Made by a program: the position numbers and the translations under genes
NCBI RefSeq assembly: GCF_003334785.1
Contig: NZ_QOWV01000008.1
DNA: 64,000 bases
From: Escherichia coli
GTDB lineage: Bacteria; Pseudomonadota; Gammaproteobacteria; Enterobacterales; Enterobacteriaceae
Direction: 5' to 3' (one strand)
Shown: positions 1-52,658 of the stretch, piece after piece
Position numbering within the stretch: position 1 is the first letter of the stretch
Layout: the number at the start of each line of letters is the position of its first letter
The notes under the pieces: generated by a model
Seen by the model: the letters and a program-made list of their open reading frames with translations, nothing else
Database searches by the model: none
What the model was told of the DNA's origin: nothing

Positions 1-1180
<1,180 letters not shown>

Positions 1181-1195
1181 TATTGCTGACACGGT

Positions 1196-1240
1196 TTTCC
1201 CCTCACCCTAACCCTCTCCCCAGAGGGGCGAGGGGACCGA
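1196..1240. repeat. Near-palindromic intergenic repeat (ccctctcccc-agag-gggcgagggg), boxC/BIME-like
   Basis: Imperfect inverted repeat read directly between pstA and pstB; family assignment is tentative. Confidence 0.35.
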
Positions 1241-1278
1241 CCGAGCGCCTTTTTGACTCTGTACACGGTTAACACTTT

Positions 1279-1312
1279 GCCGGATGCGGCGTGAACGCCT
1301 GATCCGGCCTAC
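1279..1312. repeat. REP (palindromic unit) element
   Basis: gccggatgcggcgtgaacgcctgatccggcctac matches REP consensus. Confidence 0.7.
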
Positions 1313-1323
1313 GGTAAGCCTGA

Positions 1324-2136
<813 letters not shown>

Positions 2137-2150
2137 TTCAGGAGTGCGTT

Positions 2151-2876
2151 ATGGACAGTCTCAATCTTAATAAACATATTTCCGGCCAGTTCAACGCCGA
2201 ACTGGAAAGTATCCGCACGCAGGTGATGACCATGGGCGGCATGGTGGAGCAGCAGCTTTCTGATGCAATCACCGCGATGCATAACCAGGACAGCGATCTG
2301 GCGAAGCGCGTCATCGAAGGCGACAAGAACGTCAACATGATGGAAGTGGCGATCGATGAAGCCTGCGTGCGCATTATCGCCAAACGTCAGCCGACGGCGA
2401 GCGACCTGCGACTGGTTATGGTGATCAGTAAAACCATTGCCGAGCTGGAGCGTATTGGCGACGTGGCGGACAAAATCTGCCGTACTGCGCTGGAGAAATT
2501 CTCCCAGCAGCATCAGCCGTTGCTGGTAAGTCTGGAGTCGCTGGGCCGTCATACCATCCAGATGCTGCACGACGTGCTGGACGCGTTCGCGCGGATGGAC
2601 ATTGACGAAGCGGTACGTATTTATCGTGAAGATAAAAAAGTCGATCAGGAATACGAAGGTATTGTTCGTCAACTGATGACCTACATGATGGAAGATTCGC
2701 GTACCATTCCGAGCGTACTTACTGCGCTGTTCTGCGCGCGTTCTATCGAACGTATTGGCGACCGCTGCCAGAATATTTGTGAGTTTATCTTCTACTACGT
2801 GAAGGGGCAGGATTTCCGTCACGTCGGTGGCGATGAGCTGGATAAACTGCTGGCGGGGAAAGATAGCGACAAATAA
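2151..2876 (+). CDS. phoU: Phosphate signalling regulator PhoU
   Basis: 241 aa from [13 protein letters not shown] with caggag RBS; the ORF track start at 2133 is an upstream in-frame extension. Confidence 0.95.
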
Positions 2877-2884
2877 TTCACCAG

Positions 2885-2916
2885 ACAAATCCCAATAACT
2901 TAATTATTGGGATTTG
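2885..2916 (+). terminator. Intrinsic terminator after phoU
   Basis: Hairpin aaatcccaataa/ttattgggattt followed by T-rich tract. Confidence 0.6.
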
Positions 2917-3071
2917 TTATATATAACTTTATAAATTCCTAAAATTACACAAAGTTAATAACTGCGAGCATGGTCATATTTTTATCAATAGCGCATTGCT
3001 ATTTTCTCTGCACGCAATTAAATTAATTTCCGAACCTGGATGTTCGTTATAAAAACCATTAATAAATGACT

Positions 3072-11755
<8,684 letters not shown>

Positions 11756-12223
11756 TTAACTTAAAGAGTCTGTTTCAGGACATGAAATATCCAATCCGGG
11801 TAGACGGGTAATGATTCTGCTCATCACCACACCTGCCAGCAATGCAGGAATGATGCGGACAACGAGACTGTCACCAGAAAGAATGTTTTCAAACAACTCC
11901 GAGGAAGCCATGCCCTTAATATGTACAATAACTGCACAATAGATCTCGGTGATAACGACGCCACCTATGCCACCAGCCAGACAACGATAACGTTTCTGTG
12001 ACCCGATCTTTTCCGGCAGACAGGCAACCATTACACCGGTTAACAACGCAGGAATAGCTCCCGTAGTTATCGACAATAAGAGAAAAATTGGATGTATTAT
12101 CACCCAAAGAACCAGCGGTTCTTTTGCGAAGAATATGTAGAGGACAAGAAACAGAACACCAATTAACGGTCCTAAAACTGCAAAATAAAGTCCGTGATGT
12201 ATTACCCGACGTGAAACAGACAT
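11756..12223 (-). CDS. cbrB: Inner membrane protein CbrB (YieI)
   Basis: 155-aa hydrophobic ORF. Confidence 0.85.
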   Translation of the reverse strand: MSVSRRVIHHGLYFAVLGPLIGVLFLVLYIFFAKEPLVLWVIIHPIFLLLSITTGAIPALLTGVMVACLPEKIGSQKRYRCLAGGIGGVVITEIYCAVIVHIKGMASSELFENILSGDSLVVRIIPALLAGVVMSRIITRLPGLDISCPETDSLS

Positions 12224-12289
12224 ATCAAACTCCCTTTACTTACCTTTGAGCGCCAATTTAAGCGGGGTAAGTGAAGGGAGTGTGAAGAA

Positions 12290-12955
12290 CTATGCCGTAA
12301 TATCCCAACCACGCGCTTTCCACAGTTCAGGTAACTGCGAAAGATGGGTAAAGGTGGTGACTTTCGGGTGAACGATCGGCTTATTGTGCGGGTCGGCGCA
12401 GAAGTAGAACACTTCCATACCTGCGTCGATACCAGATTGTGCACCGGCAACTGAGTCATCAACCAGAATGCAGTTTTCTACATTTACATTCATCGCTTTT
12501 GCCGCATGGAACATTAACGCCGGGTCTGGCTTCCAGCGCTGAATATCGTAGCCGCTGAACAGTTTATCCGGGAAGTAGTGCAACATATTCAGCTTGCCCA
12601 TAGAATGCTGCATTTTGTTATTTGGGCCGTTAGATACCACACACATTGGCGCAGTGATCGCTGACAGGAGCGCTCCAGCCCCTTCGATGGCTTCCAGTTC
12701 TGAATCGAACAGCCGAGCGACTTCTGCACGGTAAACGTGTTCAGCTTCTGTTTTCGCTAACGTAACACCATGTTCAAGGGAAACAATATCGATAATTTCG
12801 TACAGTTTTACACCTTTGAAACGTTTGAATACCTCTTCAGGATCGAGCGTAATACCAAATTCCTGAAACATCGTTACATATGCGCGAGAGCAAATGACTT
12901 CACTGTCGACCAGCGTACCGTCGCAGTCGAAAAATACCGCTTCTATCCGGGACAT
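12290..12955 (-). CDS. yieH: HAD-family sugar-phosphate phosphatase YieH
   Basis: 221-aa ORF with HAD motif FFDCDGTLVDSE. Confidence 0.9.
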   Translation of the reverse strand: MSRIEAVFFDCDGTLVDSEVICSRAYVTMFQEFGITLDPEEVFKRFKGVKLYEIIDIVSLEHGVTLAKTEAEHVYRAEVARLFDSELEAIEGAGALLSAITAPMCVVSNGPNNKMQHSMGKLNMLHYFPDKLFSGYDIQRWKPDPALMFHAAKAMNVNVENCILVDDSVAGAQSGIDAGMEVFYFCADPHNKPIVHPKVTTFTHLSQLPELWKARGWDITA

Positions 12956-27407: not shown

Positions 27408-28507
27408 ATGAAATTTACCGTAGAACGTGAGCATTTATTAAAACCGCTACAACAGGTGAGCGGTCCGTTAGGTGGTCGTCCTACGCTACCGATTCTCGGT
27501 AATCTGCTGTTACAGGTTGCTGACGGTACGTTGTCGCTGACCGGTACTGATCTCGAGATGGAAATGGTGGCACGTGTTGCGCTGGTTCAGCCACACGAGC
27601 CAGGAGCGACGACCGTTCCGGCGCGCAAATTCTTTGATATCTGCCGTGGTCTGCCTGAAGGCGCGGAAATTGCCGTGCAGCTGGAAGGTGAACGGATGCT
27701 GGTACGCTCCGGGCGTAGCCGTTTTTCGCTGTCTACCCTGCCAGCGGCGGATTTCCCGAACCTCGATGACTGGCAGAGTGAAGTCGAATTTACCCTGCCG
27801 CAGGCAACGATGAAGCGTCTGATTGAAGCGACCCAGTTTTCTATGGCGCATCAGGACGTTCGCTATTACTTAAATGGTATGCTGTTTGAAACCGAAGGTG
27901 AAGAACTGCGCACCGTGGCAACCGACGGCCACCGTCTGGCGGTCTGTTCAATGCCAATTGGTCAATCTTTGCCAAGCCATTCGGTGATCGTACCGCGTAA
28001 AGGCGTGATTGAACTGATGCGTATGCTCGACGGCGGCGACAATCCGCTGCGCGTACAGATTGGCAGCAACAACATTCGCGCCCACGTTGGCGACTTTATC
28101 TTCACCTCCAAACTGGTGGATGGTCGCTTCCCGGATTATCGCCGCGTTCTGCCGAAGAACCCGGACAAACATCTGGAAGCTGGCTGCGATCTGCTCAAGC
28201 AGGCGTTTGCTCGCGCGGCGATTCTCTCTAACGAGAAATTCCGCGGCGTACGTCTTTATGTCAGCGAAAACCAGCTGAAAATCACCGCCAACAACCCGGA
28301 ACAGGAAGAAGCGGAAGAGATCCTCGACGTTACCTATAGCGGTGCGGAGATGGAAATCGGCTTCAACGTCAGTTATGTGCTGGATGTTCTGAACGCGCTG
28401 AAATGCGAAAACGTCCGCATGATGCTGACCGATTCGGTTTCCAGCGTGCAGATTGAAGATGCGGCCAGCCAGAGCGCGGCTTATGTTGTCATGCCAATGA
28501 GACTGTA

Positions 28508-28508
<1 letters not shown>
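27408..28508 (+). CDS. dnaN: DNA polymerase III beta sliding clamp DnaN
   Basis: 366-aa ORF, 4 bp after dnaA. Confidence 0.98.
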
Positions 28509-32024
<3,516 letters not shown>

Positions 32025-32045
32025 TGGCGCTAACCATGCGAGCGT

Positions 32046-32144
32046 GCCTGATGCGCTACGCTTATCAGGCCTACGAAAATCTTGCAATGTATTGAATTTT
32101 CATGATTTTGTAGGCCGGATAAGGCGTTCACGCCGCATCCGGCA
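32046..32144. repeat. BIME: two REP elements in inverted orientation
   Basis: gcctgatgcgctacgcttatcaggcctac and gtaggccggataaggcgttcacgccgcatccggca. Confidence 0.7.
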
Positions 32145-33634: not shown

Positions 33635-34291
33635 TTATTGGTTTACTGCATATACAACCAGAAATTGCAGCGGTGCAGTAATGATGTCCAGCGTAACAGT
33701 CACTGGCAGTAATGCTGCGGAAACACCATCCGGAATGCCTCTGGGTGAATAGTATTCATAAAATCGCACTTTAAATGGATGGTAGAACGCCATCACCTTT
33801 GAGTAATCCATGTTTTTATTTTTCTCATGGATTGTGCCTTTTAGGTTTTCCAGTGACCTGGTACAGTGTTGAACACCACAGGCAAAACCATAATGCGTTG
33901 CCAGTGCCTTTTCTTCTTCGTTATTCCAGTAGTAGTAAAGCGATATTGTGCCGGTAAATTTCTTTTTCCCCGCATTTAAAACAAATCTTGCGTCATCGGC
34001 AACCTGAATATTGTGCCGGTTAAGTGCTGGATCATTGAGCATCTTAACGATGTCATCGGCACCATCAGTGATAAGGTAATCCAGCGATTCCCCTACAAAA
34101 ACATAGCCTTTTGTTCCATTACTATCTTTTGCCTGCGATAGCCCAGTGATGGTGTCTGACTGCGATTGATACTTTCCTGAACTACCCTTTGCGGTATGGG
34201 AAACCAGAGCATACGAGATACAGCCTGAAAGCATCAGCGCCAGTGGGAATAAACCGGCAACCTTAAAAAATCCCTTAAAATTCAACTTCAT
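33635..34291 (-). CDS. yidX: Putative lipoprotein YidX
   Basis: 218 aa from [24 protein letters not shown] (lipobox); the 257-aa ORF track entry includes an upstream extension. Confidence 0.85.
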
Positions 34292-34428
34292 GATTAATCC
34301 TTTAAACGAGTAGCTAAGCCGTTGAAAGCATACTCTTCTTTCCCTCCTGTTTAGCGCCTGATATCCCTTTTCAGATTTCTGCCCGACGCATGTCATTTTT
34401 TTATGCATTGTTCTTTTTGTGATCTAAA

Positions 34429-34502
34429 TTGTAGTACAACAATATAAGTTTGTACTACATTACACGCACGGCAAACGCGAACGTCATCACGCTGGTACTA
34501 CA
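34429..34502. promoter_or_regulatory. Putative DgoR operator: inverted repeats ttgtagtaca / tgtactaca plus a third gtactaca half-site
   Basis: Palindromic pair at 34429-34459 and extra half-site at 34495-34502, 65-140 bp upstream of dgoR. Confidence 0.5.
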
Positions 34503-34568
34503 AAGTTGCCGCGTTATGCATCGATCGGGGTAAAGTAGAGAAGAACATACAGAGCACAAGGACTCTCC

Positions 34569-35258
34569 ATGACTCTCAATAAAACCGATCGCATTGTCAT
34601 TACGCTGGGTAAACAGATCGTTCACGGCAAATACGTGCCAGGCTCGCCGCTTCCGGCTGAGGCGGAACTCTGTGAGGAGTTTGCAACCTCGCGCAACATC
34701 ATCCGTGAGGTGTTCCGTTCGCTGATGGCGAAGCGGCTGATTGAAATGAAACGTTATCGCGGGGCGTTTGTGGCACCGCGTAACCAGTGGAATTACCTCG
34801 ACACTGACGTACTGCAATGGGTGCTGGAAAATGACTACGACCCACGGCTTATCAGTGCCATGAGCGAAGTGCGAAATCTGGTGGAACCGGCGATTGCCCG
34901 TTGGGCAGCAGAGCGCGCGACTTCCAGCGATCTGGCGCAGATTGAATCGGCGCTGAACGAGATGATTGCCAACAATCAGGACCGCGAAGCGTTTAACGAA
35001 GCGGATATTCGCTACCACGAGGCGGTGCTGCAGTCGGTGCATAACCCGGTGTTACAGCAACTTAGCATTGCGATCAGTTCGCTGCAGCGGGCGGTTTTTG
35101 AACGAACCTGGATGGGCGATGAGGCCAACATGCCGCAAACGCTCCAGGAACATAAGGCGCTGTTCGATGCGATACGACATCAGGACGGCGATGCGGCAGA
35201 GCAGGCGGCGCTTACCATGATCGCCAGCTCGACACGAAGGTTAAAGGAAATCACATGA
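34569..35258 (+). CDS. dgoR: GntR/FadR-family repressor DgoR
   Basis: 229-aa ORF with N-terminal HTH. Confidence 0.95.
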   Translation: MTLNKTDRIVITLGKQIVHGKYVPGSPLPAEAELCEEFATSRNIIREVFRSLMAKRLIEMKRYRGAFVAPRNQWNYLDTDVLQWVLENDYDPRLISAMSEVRNLVEPAIARWAAERATSSDLAQIESALNEMIANNQDREAFNEADIRYHEAVLQSVHNPVLQQLSIAISSLQRAVFERTWMGDEANMPQTLQEHKALFDAIRHQDGDAAEQAALTMIASSTRRLKEIT

Positions 35259-36132
35259 CAGCTCGCTACATCGCAATTGACTGGGGATCGACCAATCTGC
35301 GCGCCTGGCTTTATCAGGGCGACCACTGCCTGGAGAGCAGGCAATCAGAAGCAGGCGTCACGCGCCTGAACGGAAAATCTCCGGCTGCGGTGTTAGCAGA
35401 AGTCACGACCGACTGGCGTGAAGAGAAAACGCCAGTGGTAATGGCAGGAATGGTTGGCAGCAACGTCGGCTGGAAAGTTGCACCGTATTTATCTGTTCCT
35501 GCCTGTTTTTCGTCTATTGGCGAACAATTAACGTCAGTTGGCGACAATATCTGGATTATTCCCGGATTATGTGTCTCTCATGACGATACCACAATGTGAT
35601 GCGCGGCGAAGAAACACAATTGATCGGCGCGCGAGCTCTGGCTCCTTCCTCTCTTTATGTCATGCCCGGAACCCATTGCAAATGGGTGCAGGCCGATAGC
35701 CAGCAAATCAACGATTTTCGCACCGTGATGACCGGTGAATTACATCATTTACTGTTAAATCACTCATTGATTGGCGCAGGTTTGCCGCCGCAGGAAAACT
35801 CTGCCGATGCCTTCACAGCTGGCCTTGAGCGTGGTCTTAATACGCCCGCCATATTGCCGCAGCTTTTTGAAGTTCGCGCCTCGCATGTGCTGGGAACACT
35901 TCCCCGCGAACAGGTCAGCGAATTTCTCTCTGGTTTGTTGATTGGCGCAGAGGTCGCCAGTATGCGCGACTATGTGGCCCATCAACACGCCATCACCCTT
36001 GTCGCCGGAACATCGCTGACCGCGCGCTACCAGCAAGCCTTTCAGGCGATGGGTTGCGACGTGACGGCGGTGGCGGGCGACACGGCATTTCAGGCTGGTA
36101 TAAGGAGCATCGCTCATGCAGTGGCAAACTAA
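35255..36132 (+). pseudogene. dgoK: 2-dehydro-3-deoxygalactonokinase dgoK, split by an apparent -1 frameshift near 35585-35598
   Basis: Two overlapping ORFs (35255..35599 and 35596..36132) in different frames together span 878 nt; one added base would give a single 292-codon ORF. Confidence 0.7.
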
Positions 36133-36733
36133 ACTCCCGCTGATCGCCATTTTGCGCGGTATTACGCCCGACGAGGCGCTGGCGCATGTTGGCGCGGTGA
36201 TTGACGCCGGGTTCGACGCGGTTGAAATCCCGCTGAATTCCCCACAATGGGAGCAAAGCATTCCCGCCATCGTTGATGCGTACGGCGACAAGGCGTTGAT
36301 TGGCGCAGGTACGGTACTGAAACCTGAACAGGTCGATGCGCTCGCCAGGATGAGCTGTCAGCTCATCGTTACGCCCAATATCCATAGTGAAGTGATCCGC
36401 CGTGCGGTGGGCTACGGCATGACCGTCTGCCCCGGCTGCGCGACGGCGACCGAAGCCTTTACCGCGCTCGAAGCGGGCGCGCAGGCGCTGAAAATATTTC
36501 CGTCATCGGCTTTTGGTCCGCAATACATCAAAGCGTTAAAAGCGGTATTGCCATCGGACATCGCAGTCTTTGCCGTTGGCGGCGTGACGCCAGAAAACCT
36601 GGCGCAGTGGATAGACGCAGGTTGTGCAGGGGCGGGCTTAGGCAGCGATCTCTATCGCGCCGGGCAATCCGTAGAGCGCACCGCGCAGCAGGCAGCAGCA
36701 TTTGTTAAGGCGTATCGAGAGGCAGTGCAATGA
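36116..36733 (+). CDS. dgoA: 2-dehydro-3-deoxy-6-phosphogalactonate aldolase DgoA
   Basis: 205-aa ORF, KDPG-aldolase family. Confidence 0.95.
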
Positions 36734-37878
36734 AAATCACCAAAATTACCACGTATCGTTTACCTCCCCGCTGGATGTTCCTGAAAATTGAAACCGATGA
36801 AGGCGTGGTCGGTTGGGGCGAGCCCGTGATCGAAGGCCGCGCCCGTACGGTGGAAGCGGCAGTTCACGAGCTGGGTGACTATTTGATTGGTCAGGATCCA
36901 TCGCGCATCAATGACTTATGGCAAGTGATGTATCGCGCCGGATTCTATCGCGGCGGTCCGATCCTGATGAGCGCCATCGCCGGGATTGACCAGGCGTTAT
37001 GGGATATCAAAGGTAAAGTGCTGAATGCGCCGGTCTGGCAACTGATGGGCGGCCTGGTTCGCGACAAAATTAAAGCCTACAGTTGGGTTGGCGGCGATCG
37101 TCCGGCGGATGTTATCGACGGCATTAAAACGCTACGCGAAATCGGCTTCGATACCTTCAAACTGAACGGTTGTGAAGAACTGGGGCTAATTGATAACTCC
37201 CGCGCGGTAGATGCGGCGGTTAACACCGTGGCACAAATTCGTGAAGCTTTTGGCAATCAGATTGAGTTTGGTCTTGATTTCCACGGTCGCGTCAGCGCGC
37301 CGATGGCGAAAGTGCTGATTAAAGAACTGGAGCCGTATCGCCCGCTGTTTATTGAGGAGCCGGTGCTGGCGGAACAAGCCGAATACTACCCGAAACTGGC
37401 GGCACAAACGCATATTCCACTGGCGGCGGGTGAACGCATGTTCTCACGCTTCGATTTTAAACGCGTGCTGGAGGCAGGTGGTATTTCGATTCTGCAACCG
37501 GATCTCTCCCACGCGGGCGGTATTACCGAATGCTACAAAATCGCCGGAATGGCAGAAGCCTATGACGTGACCCTTGCGCCGCACTGTCCGCTCGGACCGA
37601 TTGCACTGGCGGCTTGCCTGCATATCGACTTTGTTTCCTATAACGCCGTACTTCAGGAACAAAGTATGGGAATTCATTACAACAAAGGCGCGGAGTTACT
37701 CGACTTTGTGAAAAACAAAGAAGACTTCAGCATGGTCGGCGGCTTCTTTAAACCGTTAACGAAACCGGGCTTAGGCGTGGAAATCGACGAAGCTAAAGTG
37801 ATTGAGTTCAGTAAAAATGCCCCGGACTGGCGTAATCCGCTCTGGCGTCATGAAGATAACAGCGTAGCAGAGTGGTAA
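36730..37878 (+). CDS. dgoD: D-galactonate dehydratase DgoD
   Basis: 382-aa ORF, enolase superfamily. Confidence 0.97.
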
Positions 37879-37997
37879 TTCCTGCCACGTAAGCCCCTCA
37901 TCGGGCACTAAAACAGCAATACAAAAATATAACCCTCTGTAAATTACAGGGCATGGTGAGCGGCTTCGCTATGCCCAAAATCTGGAGAAAGCTCGCT

Positions 37998-39290
37998 ATG
38001 GATATTCCCGTTAATGCAGCAAAGCCGGGGCGTCGGCGTTATCTGACGCTGGTGATGATCTTTATTACGGTAGTCATTTGTTATGTCGACCGCGCCAACC
38101 TGGCCGTGGCTTCCGCCCATATTCAGGAAGAGTTCGGCATTACCAAAGCGGAAATGGGCTATGTATTTTCGGCCTTCGCCTGGCTTTATACGCTATGTCA
38201 GATCCCCGGCGGTTGGTTTTTAGATCGCGTAGGTTCTCGCGTGACTTATTTTATTGCGATATTTGGCTGGTCAGTGGCGACTTTATTCCAGGGCTTTGCC
38301 ACGGGCTTAATGTCATTAATTGGTCTGCGCGCGATAACCGGTATTTTCGAAGCGCCTGCTTTCCCGACCAATAACCGGATGGTGACCAGCTGGTTCCCGG
38401 AACATGAACGCGCTTCTGCCGTTGGTTTTTATACGTCTGGTCAGTTTGTCGGTCTGGCGTTTCTGACGCCGCTGCTGATCTGGATTCAGGAGATGTTGAG
38501 CTGGCACTGGGTGTTCATTGTCACTGGTGGTATCGGCATTATCTGGTCGCTGATTTGGTTTAAGGTTTATCAGCCGCCGCGCCTGACCAAAGGTATCAGC
38601 AAAGCTGAACTGGATTACATTCGTGATGGCGGCGGTCTGGTGGATGGTGATGCGCCGGTGAAGAAAGAGGCGCGTCAGCCGTTAACAGCCAAAGACTGGA
38701 AACTGGTGTTCCATCGTAAACTGATCGGCGTTTATCTTGGGCAATTTGCGGTGGCTTCTACACTGTGGTTTTTCTTAACCTGGTTCCCGAACTATTTAAC
38801 CCAGGAAAAAGGAATCACGGCGCTGAAAGCAGGCTTTATGACCACGGTGCCATTCCTCGCGGCGTTTGTCGGCGTCCTGCTCTCTGGCTGGGTAGCGGAT
38901 CTGCTGGTACGTAAGGGCTTTTCACTGGGCTTTGCGCGTAAAACGCCGATTATCTGCGGCTTGCTGATCTCCACCTGCATTATGGGCGCTAACTACACTA
39001 ACGATCCGATGATGATTATGTGCCTGATGGCGCTGGCATTCTTCGGTAACGGTTTTGCTTCGATTACCTGGTCGCTGGTTTCTTCTCTGGCACCGATGCG
39101 CCTGATTGGTTTAACCGGCGGCGTGTTTAACTTCGCCGGTGGTCTGGGCGGCATCACCGTTCCGCTGGTGGTGGGGTACCTGGCGCAGGGTTACGGTTTC
39201 GCACCTGCACTGGTTTATATCTCCGCCGTCGCGTTGATTGGCGCGCTCTCTTATATCCTGCTGGTGGGCGATGTGAAGCGCGTTGGCTAA
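37998..39290 (+). CDS. dgoT: D-galactonate:H+ symporter DgoT (MFS)
   Basis: 430 aa from [16 protein letters not shown]. Confidence 0.95.
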
Positions 39291-40351
39291 TCCTTCAACT
39301 GTGGAATATGTGCCACACCACTGCGCATAATCCACTTTCTTAAAGCCGGTGCGGTCAGGCATCGGCTTTTTACTATCTTGCCGAAGAGTTTTAAACGCAG
39401 TTTGCGGGTGGCGCGCCAGTAAGCGGTATTGAGCTTCTCTGGCTGCTTCAGTAACACCGAACGCAGAATGTCTGTGCTATCCAGCGCATAGCTAATCCCC
39501 TCCAGCGAGCTGGCGCTGATAAATCCCGCCGCTTCACCAATCAGAAAGGCGTTGTCCTTACCGCAGACAAAATCCTGCCAGCGCGAGGGAAACAGCACCG
39601 TGCATTTTTCGCTTTTCACCGTCTTACCAAACTGGAACTGAAAGGCGCTCATTTTCTCTTTCAGCGTCGTGAAACGCGTCTGACCGTCTTTCATTGGATA
39701 GGCACCGCCAAAGATAAAATAACCGTCTTTGCTGATACTCCATGAATAACAGTTAGTTATCGAATTATCAAAGATGCAGGAGTAGAACGGCACCGGATGT
39801 TTCTCCGCGAACCACTGCTGGATAGCGACATATTTACGGATTTGATGATCCGGGTAGAGATGTCGCCGCACCATCGAGTTTGCGCCATCGGCACCGACCA
39901 GATAGCGGGCGGTAATATGTTGCTCCCAGCCGTCTGCACGAAAAATGACATGCCATTTATCATCCTCACGCCAGATTTTTCGGCACAGGCTGTCGTGATA
40001 AACCTCAACGCTGGCGGGGATCAGCGATTTCATCCACAAGTCGAAAGCATGGCGATTAATATTGATATAGCTTCGCTGGTAGTTACGCGTGAGCGATGCG
40101 GCGACGTCGACGGTTTTGACGCTGAAAATCTGCGGATTAGCGATCACATCGACAGGAAGCGTCAGCCCATCGCGAATAAAAGATCGCTGCGCGTCCGGTG
40201 CCAGCAGACCGCCGCAGGGTTTGCTGAAACCTTCAGTACCACACTGGTGCTTTTTATCCAGCGCGATCACCTGCATTTTGCCTGCTAACTTTCGTGCCAA
40301 CGCCGATCCTGCCGGGCCGAGGCCAATAATCGCCACGTCGAAATGTTCCAT
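39287..40351 (-). CDS. cbrA: FAD-binding protein CbrA (YidS)
   Basis: 354 aa from [19 protein letters not shown] (Rossmann GxGxxG). Confidence 0.9.
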
Positions 40352-46124: not shown

Positions 46125-49445
<3,321 letters not shown>

Positions 49446-49611: not shown

Positions 49612-51564
49612 ATGAATTCGTTACAAATCTTGAGTTTTGTCGGTTTTACGCTGCTGGTGGCGGTGATCACCTGGTGGAAGGTCCGCAAAACAGATACCGG
49701 ATCGCAACAAGGCTATTTTCTTGCCGGACGTTCACTAAAAGCGCCGGTTATTGCCGCTTCGTTAATGCTAACCAACCTTTCCACGGAACAACTGGTCGGC
49801 CTTTCCGGGCAGGCCTACAAAAGCGGCATGTCGGTGATGGGCTGGGAAGTGACTTCAGCGGTGACGCTGATCTTCCTCGCGCTAATCTTTTTACCGCGCT
49901 ATCTGAAGCGCGGCATTGCCACCATCCCCGATTTTCTGGAGGAACGTTATGATAAAACGACGCGTATTATCATCGACTTCTGCTTCCTAATTGCCACCGG
50001 CGTCTGCTTTCTGCCGATTGTTCTCTACTCCGGCGCGTTGGCGCTCAACAGCCTGTTTCACGTCGGGGAATCGCTACAGATTTCTCACGGTGCGGCTATC
50101 TGGCTACTGGTAATTTTGCTTGGTCTGGCGGGAATTTTGTATGCGGTGATCGGCGGACTGCGCGCAATGGCAGTGGCGGACTCCATCAACGGTATTGGGC
50201 TGGTTATCGGCGGGTTGATGGTGCCGGTATTTGGCCTGATCGCGATGGGCAAGGGCAGCTTTATGCAGGGCATTGAGCAACTCACCACCGTTCACGCCGA
50301 GAAATTAAACTCAATCGGTGGCCCGACCGATCCCTTGCCGATTGGCGCGGCATTTACCGGTTTGATTCTGGTGAACACCTTTTACTGGTGTACAAATCAG
50401 GGCATCGTGCAACGCACGCTGGCGTCAAAAAGCCTGGCGGAAGGGCAAAAGGGGGCGCTGTTAACGGCGGTGCTGAAAATGCTCGACCCGCTGGTACTGG
50501 TGCTGCCAGGGTTGATTGCGTTTCATCTGTATCAGGATTTACCGAAAGCCGACATGGCCTACCCGACGCTGGTCAATAACGTTCTGCCAGTGCCAATGGT
50601 GGGTTTCTTCGGCGCGGTGTTATTTGGTGCGGTGATCAGTACCTTCAACGGCTTTCTGAATAGCGCCAGTACGTTATTCAGTATGGGTATTTACCGTCGC
50701 ATCATTAACCAGAATGCCGAGCCGCAGCAGCTGGTCACCGTCGGGCGCAAATTTGGTTTCTTTATCGCTATCGTTTCGGTGCTGGTCGCGCCGTGGATCG
50801 CCAACGCGCCGCAGGGGCTGTATAGCTGGATGAAACAGCTCAACGGCATTTACAACGTGCCGCTGGTTACCATCATCATTATGGGCTTTTTCTTCCCGCG
50901 CATCCCGGCGCTGGCGGCAAAAGTAGCGATGGGGATTGGCATAATCAGCTACATCACCATCAACTATCTGGTGAAGTTCGACTTCCATTTCCTCTATGTG
51001 CTGGCCTGTACGTTCTGCATCAACGTGGTCGTGATGCTGGTGATCGGTTTTATCAAACCGCGCGCCACGCCGTTCACCTTCAAAGATGCGTTTGCGGTGG
51101 ACATGAAACCGTGGAAAAACGTCAAGATCGCGTCAATTGGCATCCTGTTCGCGATGATTGGCGTCTATGCCGGGCTGGCTGAATTCGGCGGCTACGGTAC
51201 GCGCTGGTTAGCGATGATCAGTTATTTCATTGCCGCCGTAGTGATTGTCTACCTGATTTTTGACAGCTGGCGGCGGAAGGTATTCGCTTTAATTCCGCCT
51301 ACACCTGTTCACCGGTTTGTACGCCTGCACGGGCCGGACTATTTACCGGTATCTACGCTAACCAGTCCGGCCCGTGGACCAACAACGTCGCGCCAGGCAA
51401 AAACATCTCCACTATGGGGCGCTACTTTAAGGATGCCGGCTATCACACCTGTTACATCGGCAAATGGCATCTCGACGGTCATGACTATTTCGGCACTGGC
51501 GAGTGTCCGCCGGAGTGGGACGCTGATTACTGGTTCGATGGGGCGAACTATCTTAGCGAACTGA
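49612..51564 (+). CDS. yidK: SSS-family Na+/solute symporter YidK-like; abnormal 3' end that reads into yidJ out of frame
   Basis: Transporter-like sequence to about 51262, then 94 low-complexity codons overlapping the sulfatase gene. Confidence 0.75.
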   Translation: MNSLQILSFVGFTLLVAVITWWKVRKTDTGSQQGYFLAGRSLKAPVIAASLMLTNLSTEQLVGLSGQAYKSGMSVMGWEVTSAVTLIFLALIFLPRYLKRGIATIPDFLEERYDKTTRIIIDFCFLIATGVCFLPIVLYSGALALNSLFHVGESLQISHGAAIWLLVILLGLAGILYAVIGGLRAMAVADSINGIGLVIGGLMVPVFGLIAMGKGSFMQGIEQLTTVHAEKLNSIGGPTDPLPIGAAFTGLILVNTFYWCTNQGIVQRTLASKSLAEGQKGALLTAVLKMLDPLVLVLPGLIAFHLYQDLPKADMAYPTLVNNVLPVPMVGFFGAVLFGAVISTFNGFLNSASTLFSMGIYRRIINQNAEPQQLVTVGRKFGFFIAIVSVLVAPWIANAPQGLYSWMKQLNGIYNVPLVTIIIMGFFFPRIPALAAKVAMGIGIISYITINYLVKFDFHFLYVLACTFCINVVVMLVIGFIKPRATPFTFKDAFAVDMKPWKNVKIASIGILFAMIGVYAGLAEFGGYGTRWLAMISYFIAAVVIVYLIFDSWRRKVFALIPPTPVHRFVRLHGPDYLPVSTLTSPARGPTTSRQAKTSPLWGATLRMPAITPVTSANGISTVMTISALASVRRSGTLITGSMGRTILAN

Positions 51565-52658
51565 CGGAAAAAGAGATTAGCCTGTGGCGCAATGGCCTAA
51601 ACAGCGTCGAAGATTTACAGGCGAACCATATCGACGAAACCTTCACCTGGGCGCATCGTATCAGCAATCGGGCGGTGGATTTTCTGCAACAGCCTGCGCG
51701 CGCAGACGAGCCTTTCCTGATGGTGGTTTCGTATGATGAGCCGCATCACCCGTTCACCTGTCCGGTGGAGTATTTAGAGAAATACGCTGATTTTTACTAC
51801 GAGCTGGGCGAGAAAGCACAGGATGACCTGGCTAACAAACCGGAACATCACCGCTTATGGGCGCAGGCGATGCCATCGCCAGTCGGTGATGACGGGCTTT
51901 ATCACCATCCGCTCTATTTTGCCTGTAATGACTTTGTTGATGACCAAATCGGACGGGTCATCAATGCCTTAACGCCAGAGCAACGTGAAAATACGTGGGT
52001 TATTTATACCTCCGATCACGGCGAAATGATGGGCGCACATAAGCTGATCAGTAAAGGGGCGGCGATGTATGACGACATCACCCGCATTCCGCTGATCATC
52101 CGTTCGCCGCAAGGGGAGCGGCGACAGGTCGATACGCCAGTCAGTCATATCGATTTACTGCCGACAATGATGGCGCTGGCAGATATTGAAAAACCAGAGA
52201 TTCTGCCGGGGGAAAATATCCTTGCCGTGAAAGAGCCACGCGGCGTGATGGTGGAATTTAACCGCTACGAGATTGAGCATGACAGCTTTGGCGGTTTTAT
52301 TCCGGTGCGTTGCTGGGTGACGGATGACTTTAAACTGGTACTCAACCTCTTCACCAGTGATGAACTTTACGATCGCCGTAATGACCCAAATGAAATGCAT
52401 AACCTGATCGATGATATCCGTTTTGCAGACGTTCGCAGCAAAATGCATGACGCCTTATTGGATTACATGGACAAAATTCGCGATCCGTTCCGCAGTTACC
52501 AATGGAGTCTGCGTCCGTGGCGTAAAGATGCACGGCCGCGCTGGATGGGGGCGTTTCGTCCACGTCCACAAGATGGCTATTCGCCAGTTGTACGCGACTA
52601 TGACACCGGCCTACCGACACAAGGGGTGAAGGTGGAGGAGAAAAAACAGAAGTTCTGA
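51264..52658 (+). pseudogene. yidJ: Cys-type sulfatase YidJ-like lacking its N-terminal ~30-35 residues
   Basis: Sulfatase homology starts at 51264 right after an in-frame TGA; C-x-P-x-R motif CTPAR at 51318-51332; first in-frame ATG only at 51414. Confidence 0.6.

Follow-up and report, generated by a model that had tools for sequence, protein, structure and literature searches.

In Escherichia coli, D-galactonate is imported by DgoT, dehydrated by DgoD, phosphorylated by DgoK and cleaved by DgoA, and the repression exerted by DgoR is lifted by D-galactonate (PMC12288454; Belliveau et al. 2018). Several natural E. coli isolates keep dgoR while the dgo structural genes are missing or have become pseudogenes (PMC12288454). 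In the mouse gut the use of D-galactonate is under selection, and dgoR knock-outs recur there (PMC9509342).

The kinase gene of K-12, dgoK (b3693; Pfam PF05035), translates into the 292-aa DgoK, whose identity to the solved 2-oxo-3-deoxygalactonate kinase of Klebsiella pneumoniae (PDB 3R1X) lies in the 87% range (E = 7.5e-162). For this pathway, dgoK and dgoA mutants made in the laboratory were reportedly described by Cooper in 1978. The locus analyzed here would resemble such mutants, which cannot grow on D-galactonate once one of the structural enzymes is lost.

The window, a stretch of 64,000 nucleotides of E. coli contig NZ_QOWV01000008.1, carries the K-12 type of operon, with the same order dgoR-K-A-D-T and the same neighbors, and its dgoK is identical to that of K-12 but for one missing A. 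It differs in that the protein ends at residue 111 followed by Thr-Thr-Met, so the locus is a pseudogene. All evidence considered, this is very probably a genuine inherited loss-of-function allele of dgoK, caused by a one-base deletion of single origin and carried by a small dispersed lineage.

The dgoK lesion and the remaining dgo genes

The elements of the locus, in window coordinates, are as follows.

34429-34459, no strand assigned: DgoR operator region, with inverted repeat IR1 (TTGTAGTACAA) at 34429-34439 and IR2 (TTGTACTACA) at 34450-34459
34569-35258, plus strand: dgoR, repressor and first gene of dgoRKADT, intact; its stop overlaps the dgoK start; WP_000174305.1, as in K-12
35255-36132, plus strand: dgoK pseudogene (2-dehydro-3-deoxygalactonokinase), 878 nt versus the normal 879
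35255-35599, plus strand: N-terminal ORF, DgoK residues 1-111 plus TTM and stop; carries the invariant D9-W10-G11 and G104
35587-35588, plus strand: deletion site found by alignment, an A lost from GATAACCAC, turning GAT-AA-CCAC of K-12 into GAT-A-CCAC
35594-35601, plus strand: ATGTGATG stop/start overlap, in which TGA 35597-35599 overlaps GTG 35596 and ATG 35599 of the downstream frame
35596-36132, plus strand: C-terminal ORF, DgoK residues 115/116-292, starting with GTG 35596 or ATG 35599 and opening at the invariant R117-G118-E119-E120
36116-36733, plus strand: dgoA, aldolase, intact; its start overlaps the dgoK end by 17 nt
36730-37878, plus strand: dgoD, galactonate dehydratase, intact
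37953-39290, plus strand: dgoT, galactonate transporter, intact, with the start as called by PGAP

The first-pass annotation had described a kinase gene of 878 nt, not a multiple of three, in which 111 codons run to a TGA and the remainder continues in another frame from 35596 to a stop at 36130-36132. The length was the same on rereading, and the ORF listing reproduced the coordinates of the remainder, whose product reads (M)MRGEETQLIGA...IAHAVAN. The description of the first part needed a refinement: the 111 native codons are there, but three out-of-frame codons are added before the stop, so that the ORF at 35255-35599 encodes 114 aa, MTARYIAIDWGSTN...GLCVSHDD followed by Thr-Thr-Met and the TGA at 35597-35599.

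Alignment to a reference dgoK, which the first-pass annotation had named as a check, revealed the loss of a single nucleotide relative to K-12 MG1655. Over the 879 nt (292 codons) of the K-12 gene the sole difference is one missing A in codon 112; at the break K-12 reads GACGATAACCACAATG and the window GACGAT-ACCACAATG. The deletion of 1 nt brings in a premature TGA three codons on. It had been predicted that one added base would restore a 292-codon ORF, and putting the missing A back indeed gives the 292-codon K-12 protein; the position of the A is immediately 5' of the a/c run that had been pointed to. Both ORFs match Pfam PF05035 (DGOK), and both fragments are homologous to and collinear with the intact K-12 orthologue.

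An identical string annotated as protein across the break, which had been named as the finding that would speak against a frameshift, was absent: PGAP labels the gene "frameshifted" in all five RefSeq genomes with the allele. The two fragments have also been deposited as separate proteins, judging by source-given names and accessions. The break is thus an ordinary pseudogene already flagged by public annotation and in this respect not new; among 30 of the 40 listed papers on dgoK, none was found to describe this allele.

The other four genes proved to be intact, as claimed before: the ORFs of dgoR, dgoA, dgoD and dgoT are uninterrupted, and the K-12 protein accessions also apply to DgoR, DgoD and DgoT. 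Relative to its K-12 counterpart DgoA carries S80G, a change present also in dgoK-intact relatives. The 430-aa form of DgoT in K-12 presumably starts at 37998, to go by a Prodigal call on a metagenome contig and by the K-12 annotation. A scan of 34300-39500 for promoters and terminators yielded no match to the sigma-70 consensus, and terminator-like matches occurred at the rate of the shuffled background, which is uninformative on polarity. Upstream of dgoR, Belliveau et al. (2018) located DgoR binding between -140 and -110 relative to the start codon, and two inverted repeats at the operator have been reported (PMC12288454).

The two fragments as a possible kinase

Among the alternatives, the one that fares best holds that dgoK works as a split gene: ribosomes would reinitiate at GTG 35596 or ATG 35599, and the fragments of 114 aa and 177/178 aa would form an active kinase, leaving the lineage galactonate-positive. 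A functional two-piece DgoK is conceivable because the stop overlaps the starts and all invariant residues are kept. Overlapping stop/start geometry can permit termination-reinitiation, and the ATGTGATG overlap resembles the junctions of coupled genes. The restart codons are, however, not preceded by a Shine-Dalgarno-like element, the upstream gacgataccacaa being without a purine-rich match.

The place of the break was viewed against an alignment of K-12 DgoK with 65 diverse full-length homologues chosen from 1.84 billion representative proteins, and against an AlphaFold2 model of DgoK (mean pLDDT 96.6). Taken together, the fragments keep all 24 invariant columns of the 66-sequence alignment, and residues 105-113 are variable; V115 is nearly invariant and R117-G118-E119-E120 are invariant. 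In the model, strands 104-109 and 112-116 form a beta-hairpin that leads into helix 119-129 and then into the second domain. The break coincides with the hairpin turn and lies close to where the chain crosses from one domain to the other. Such a position would favor a split enzyme, the N-terminal fragment corresponding to the core of the first domain, but the C-terminal fragment would be without most of strand 112-116. This strand of the predicted hairpin (pLDDT ~98), including V115 just before the RGEE motif, is lost or altered by the frameshift.

The homologues searched offered no example of an intact family with a two-gene DgoK. Of the fragment-sized representatives P0052, P0056, P0078 and P0083, the first two run out of frame after residues 111-117, which marks those two as frameshift products. 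In addition, a Gly is replaced by Ser in the C-terminal fragment of one carrier contig (L014). A point in favor of a living enzyme is the rest of the operon: dgoR, dgoA, dgoD and dgoT are intact in all carriers looked at, with no further decay in any of them. The undecayed operon fits a recent loss of dgoK and would equally fit retained function.

Some residual two-piece kinase activity from the fragments is possible but unlikely, and a galactonate-positive lineage relying on a split enzyme is very unlikely. Improbable, too, is the broader proposal that the split dgoK is kept alive by reinitiation and reassembly or, as a related possibility, that losing dgoK was adaptive and that dgoR, together with its operator, is now being retuned.

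Carriers of the deletion and its single origin

To return to the reading that we prefer, an inherited loss of dgoK, the allele was sought in a set of 5,426 complete E. coli genomes. The dgoK gene was found in 5,021 of the 5,426, nearly all copies being 879 nt long. A 60-nt probe centered on the deletion had an exact match in five of the 5,426:

LR-64-2 (NZ_AP027595): human faeces, Ecuador
JKHS016: hospital wastewater, Japan
AST198: human, Japan
isolate 364_BP0073 (OZ121069): urine, Cambodia
E423: cloacal swab, China

These five RefSeq carriers share with the window an 878-nt dgoK that is 100% identical and a substitution in yidX:

34260, minus strand: linked marker SNP in yidX, A on the plus strand, giving YidX A11V; 1.3 kb from the deletion and present only in genomes with the dgoK deletion

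The window is identical to none of the five complete carrier genomes. The closest match, LR-64-2, differs from it by 5 substitutions and no indels over 64 kb, which makes the window a separate genome. An SNP table was drawn up for the window, the five carriers and, for comparison, four relatives that are near-identical but have an intact dgoK (RM10410, FDAARGOS_1337, Z217-2 and O157:H16 98-3133). Exactly two derived states were common to the carriers, the dgoK deletion and the A at 34260, and a 60-nt probe for the yidX SNP had exact matches in the same five complete genomes and in no others. Every carrier has private SNPs of its own, and in AST198 only, an insertion of the IS110-family element ISShdy1 splits yidE (28201-29948 of its locus, corresponding to about 43536 of the window). 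Because of these private SNPs and the one IS insertion, the carriers are regarded as distinct isolates that diverged after the deletion.

The exact truncated product of 114 aa was found on 457 contigs (764 index blocks) of NCBI, ENA and Logan, a gut metagenome contig included, and the 177-aa form of the C-terminal fragment on 667 contigs. The longest contigs with the 114-aa product were mostly of 2-200 kb, as expected for short-read drafts. Three allele-bearing contigs were retrieved, and the deletion went together with 34260-A in all three.

The gut-metagenome contig with the deletion (L013) displays two dense SNP tracts, at approximately 6740-6850 and at 12030-12290 of the contig, the former near yidB (window 31997-32105) and the latter inside dgoD (37284-37542). 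They suggest recombination or a chimeric metagenome assembly.

Given this distribution, the possibility already raised in the first-pass annotation, that the A is missing through an error of sequencing or assembly and dgoK is in fact whole in the strain, is hardly credible. Many purported bacterial pseudogenes do come from assembly errors (PMC11017572), and one allele-bearing contig (L015) belongs to a visibly indel-ridden assembly. The same deletion is present, however, in five complete genomes from four countries, in the window and in hundreds of mostly short-read drafts, and it is perfectly linked to the yidX substitution, which no indel-type error would create. Moreover, the lesion site is an AA dinucleotide without a homopolymer, no other indel was found in the window over 40 kb against the dgoK-intact near-identical relatives, and JKHS016 is a hybrid assembly of Illumina and Nanopore (ONT) reads. 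Sequencing error was rejected on the population evidence, i.e., independent assemblies together with the linked SNP, and the earlier caveat is effectively refuted. Independent occurrence, linkage to yidX and assembly quality all argue for a single inherited mutational event.

Because of the linked yidX SNP the deletion is assigned a single origin. What the compared genomes demonstrate, at the level of their sequences, is one mutational origin and not a named clone; no sequence type came up in the consulted text of papers naming JKHS016 and AST198. A phase-variable contingency locus would be another source of frameshifted copies, and no hypermutable repeat tract was seen at the switch site, where AA becomes A within GATAACCAC; the single origin, too, speaks against it.

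Programmed recoding, by which a -1 ribosomal frameshift or transcriptional slippage would give full-length DgoK, has a negligible chance of being right: nothing specific speaks for it beyond the fact that the frame would be regained by a -1 shift within 35584-35596, and this rescue zone of 13 nt (CGATACCACAATG), bounded by TGA 35581, a stop in the downstream frame, and by the premature TGA 35597, has neither an X XXY YYZ slippery heptamer nor a homopolymer run, on which grounds the idea was rejected, while the interrupted form occurs in just five of 5,426 genomes and all 65 of the 65 diverse full-length homologues chosen are single polypeptides.

Some of the private SNPs of the carriers lie in dgoR or upstream of it. 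In JKHS016 an A>G change at 34439 affects the last base of operator repeat IR1, and AST198 has G>A at -99 (34470) as well as DgoR Y149F (35014). Altogether, three private SNPs were observed in dgoR and upstream of it versus approximately 0.5 expected (Poisson P ~0.014, calculated post hoc on few genomes). As a sign that later SNPs cluster in dgoR and the operator this is weak, and it serves as a lead.

Two other lesions were noticed in the window. A 159-bp deletion between two direct repeats CTGGCGGC (window 51240-51300, junction near 51266) has taken away the last part of yidK and the first part of yidJ; the ORFs at the junction span 49612-51564 and 51414-52658, and both genes are partial according to PGAP. 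The deletion is present also in the dgoK-intact RM10410, Z217-2 and O157:H16 98-3133, and absent from FDAARGOS_1337; its presence in dgoK-intact relatives means that it predates the dgoK deletion. At 47741-48555 a gene of family 4 glycosyl hydrolases adjoins a PTS IIB gene and is annotated as a frameshifted pseudogene in every retrieved relative whose locus extends that far; it resembles the known K-12 glvG pseudogene.

Probable consequences for D-galactonate use, and other dgo losses

In the explanation that we propose, one A of GATAACCAC (codon 112) was lost in a single event in a K-12-like E. coli of phylogroup A, and the deletion was passed down to a small lineage of wide geographic spread, to which the strain of the window belongs. 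Translation stops three codons past the deletion. Residues 1-111, which include the DWG motif, are thereby parted from the remainder of the sugar-kinase-like two-domain fold, to which the invariant RGEE motif belongs along with the second domain and the C-terminal helix. No 2-dehydro-3-deoxygalactonate kinase would be expected. D-Galactonate would still be sensed, imported and dehydrated by DgoR, DgoT and DgoD, respectively, but the product would not be phosphorylated, so that the flux would stop at the non-phosphorylated 2-dehydro-3-deoxygalactonate, which may accumulate, as the first-pass annotation had suggested. From what is known of the pathway we infer that kinase activity and the ability to grow on D-galactonate have most likely been lost.

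The expression of dgoA, dgoD and dgoT may also be reduced, through lost translational coupling and polarity. Polarity is plausible because the dgoA start overlaps the end of dgoK and up to approximately 520 nt would be left untranslated.

The toxicity observed in ΔdgoA strains is due to the phosphorylated intermediate (PMC12288454). Mutants in dgoA accumulate this compound, whereas the loss of dgoK should halt the pathway one step earlier; since the toxic intermediate is the phosphorylated one, strong toxicity would not be expected here.

A second, independent dgoK frameshift was encountered. One C is lost in GGCCCAT (nt 723-725, codon 242), which yields a product of 254 aa; VR50 is one of 15 complete genomes with this allele, which was also found on at least 1000 contigs. 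In the retrieved carrier loci it is located as follows:

3723-3725 of locus L017 (also in L016 and L018): second dgoK frameshift

The VR50 allele resembles that of the window in being a 1-nt deletion on a K-12-like dgoK allele, in an operon otherwise initially intact, spread within a lineage. It differs in its site and its independent origin, and some of its carriers show decay of dgoT, unseen in the lineage of the window: dgoT contains IS1 in L018 and is fragmented in L016.

A third truncated DgoK, represented by P0052, reads ...SHDDDARRRNTIDRR and goes out of frame from the same hairpin on a divergent allele background. Judged from the protein alone, the loss of 11 nt (AACCACAATGT) between GAT repeats could account for it.

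A megablast search with dgoK left 405 of the 5,426 complete genomes without any match, which suggests absence of the whole gene or its strong divergence in some lineages. Both frameshift alleles and the ~400 genomes without a dgoK match show that the dgo pathway is dispensable and has been repeatedly lost in nature, as was already known.

The features of the window allele that are slightly unusual are limited to the stop/start overlap at a domain boundary and the weak post hoc clustering of SNPs in dgoR and the operator. The case shows that a real pseudogene can be told from an assembly artefact without reads, and the deletion combined with the yidX A11V SNP is a clean lineage marker. Loss of dgo functions is ecologically meaningful, though not new; for E. 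coli at large the finding has little wider significance, and it marks a small sublineage of the species as probably unable to use D-galactonate.
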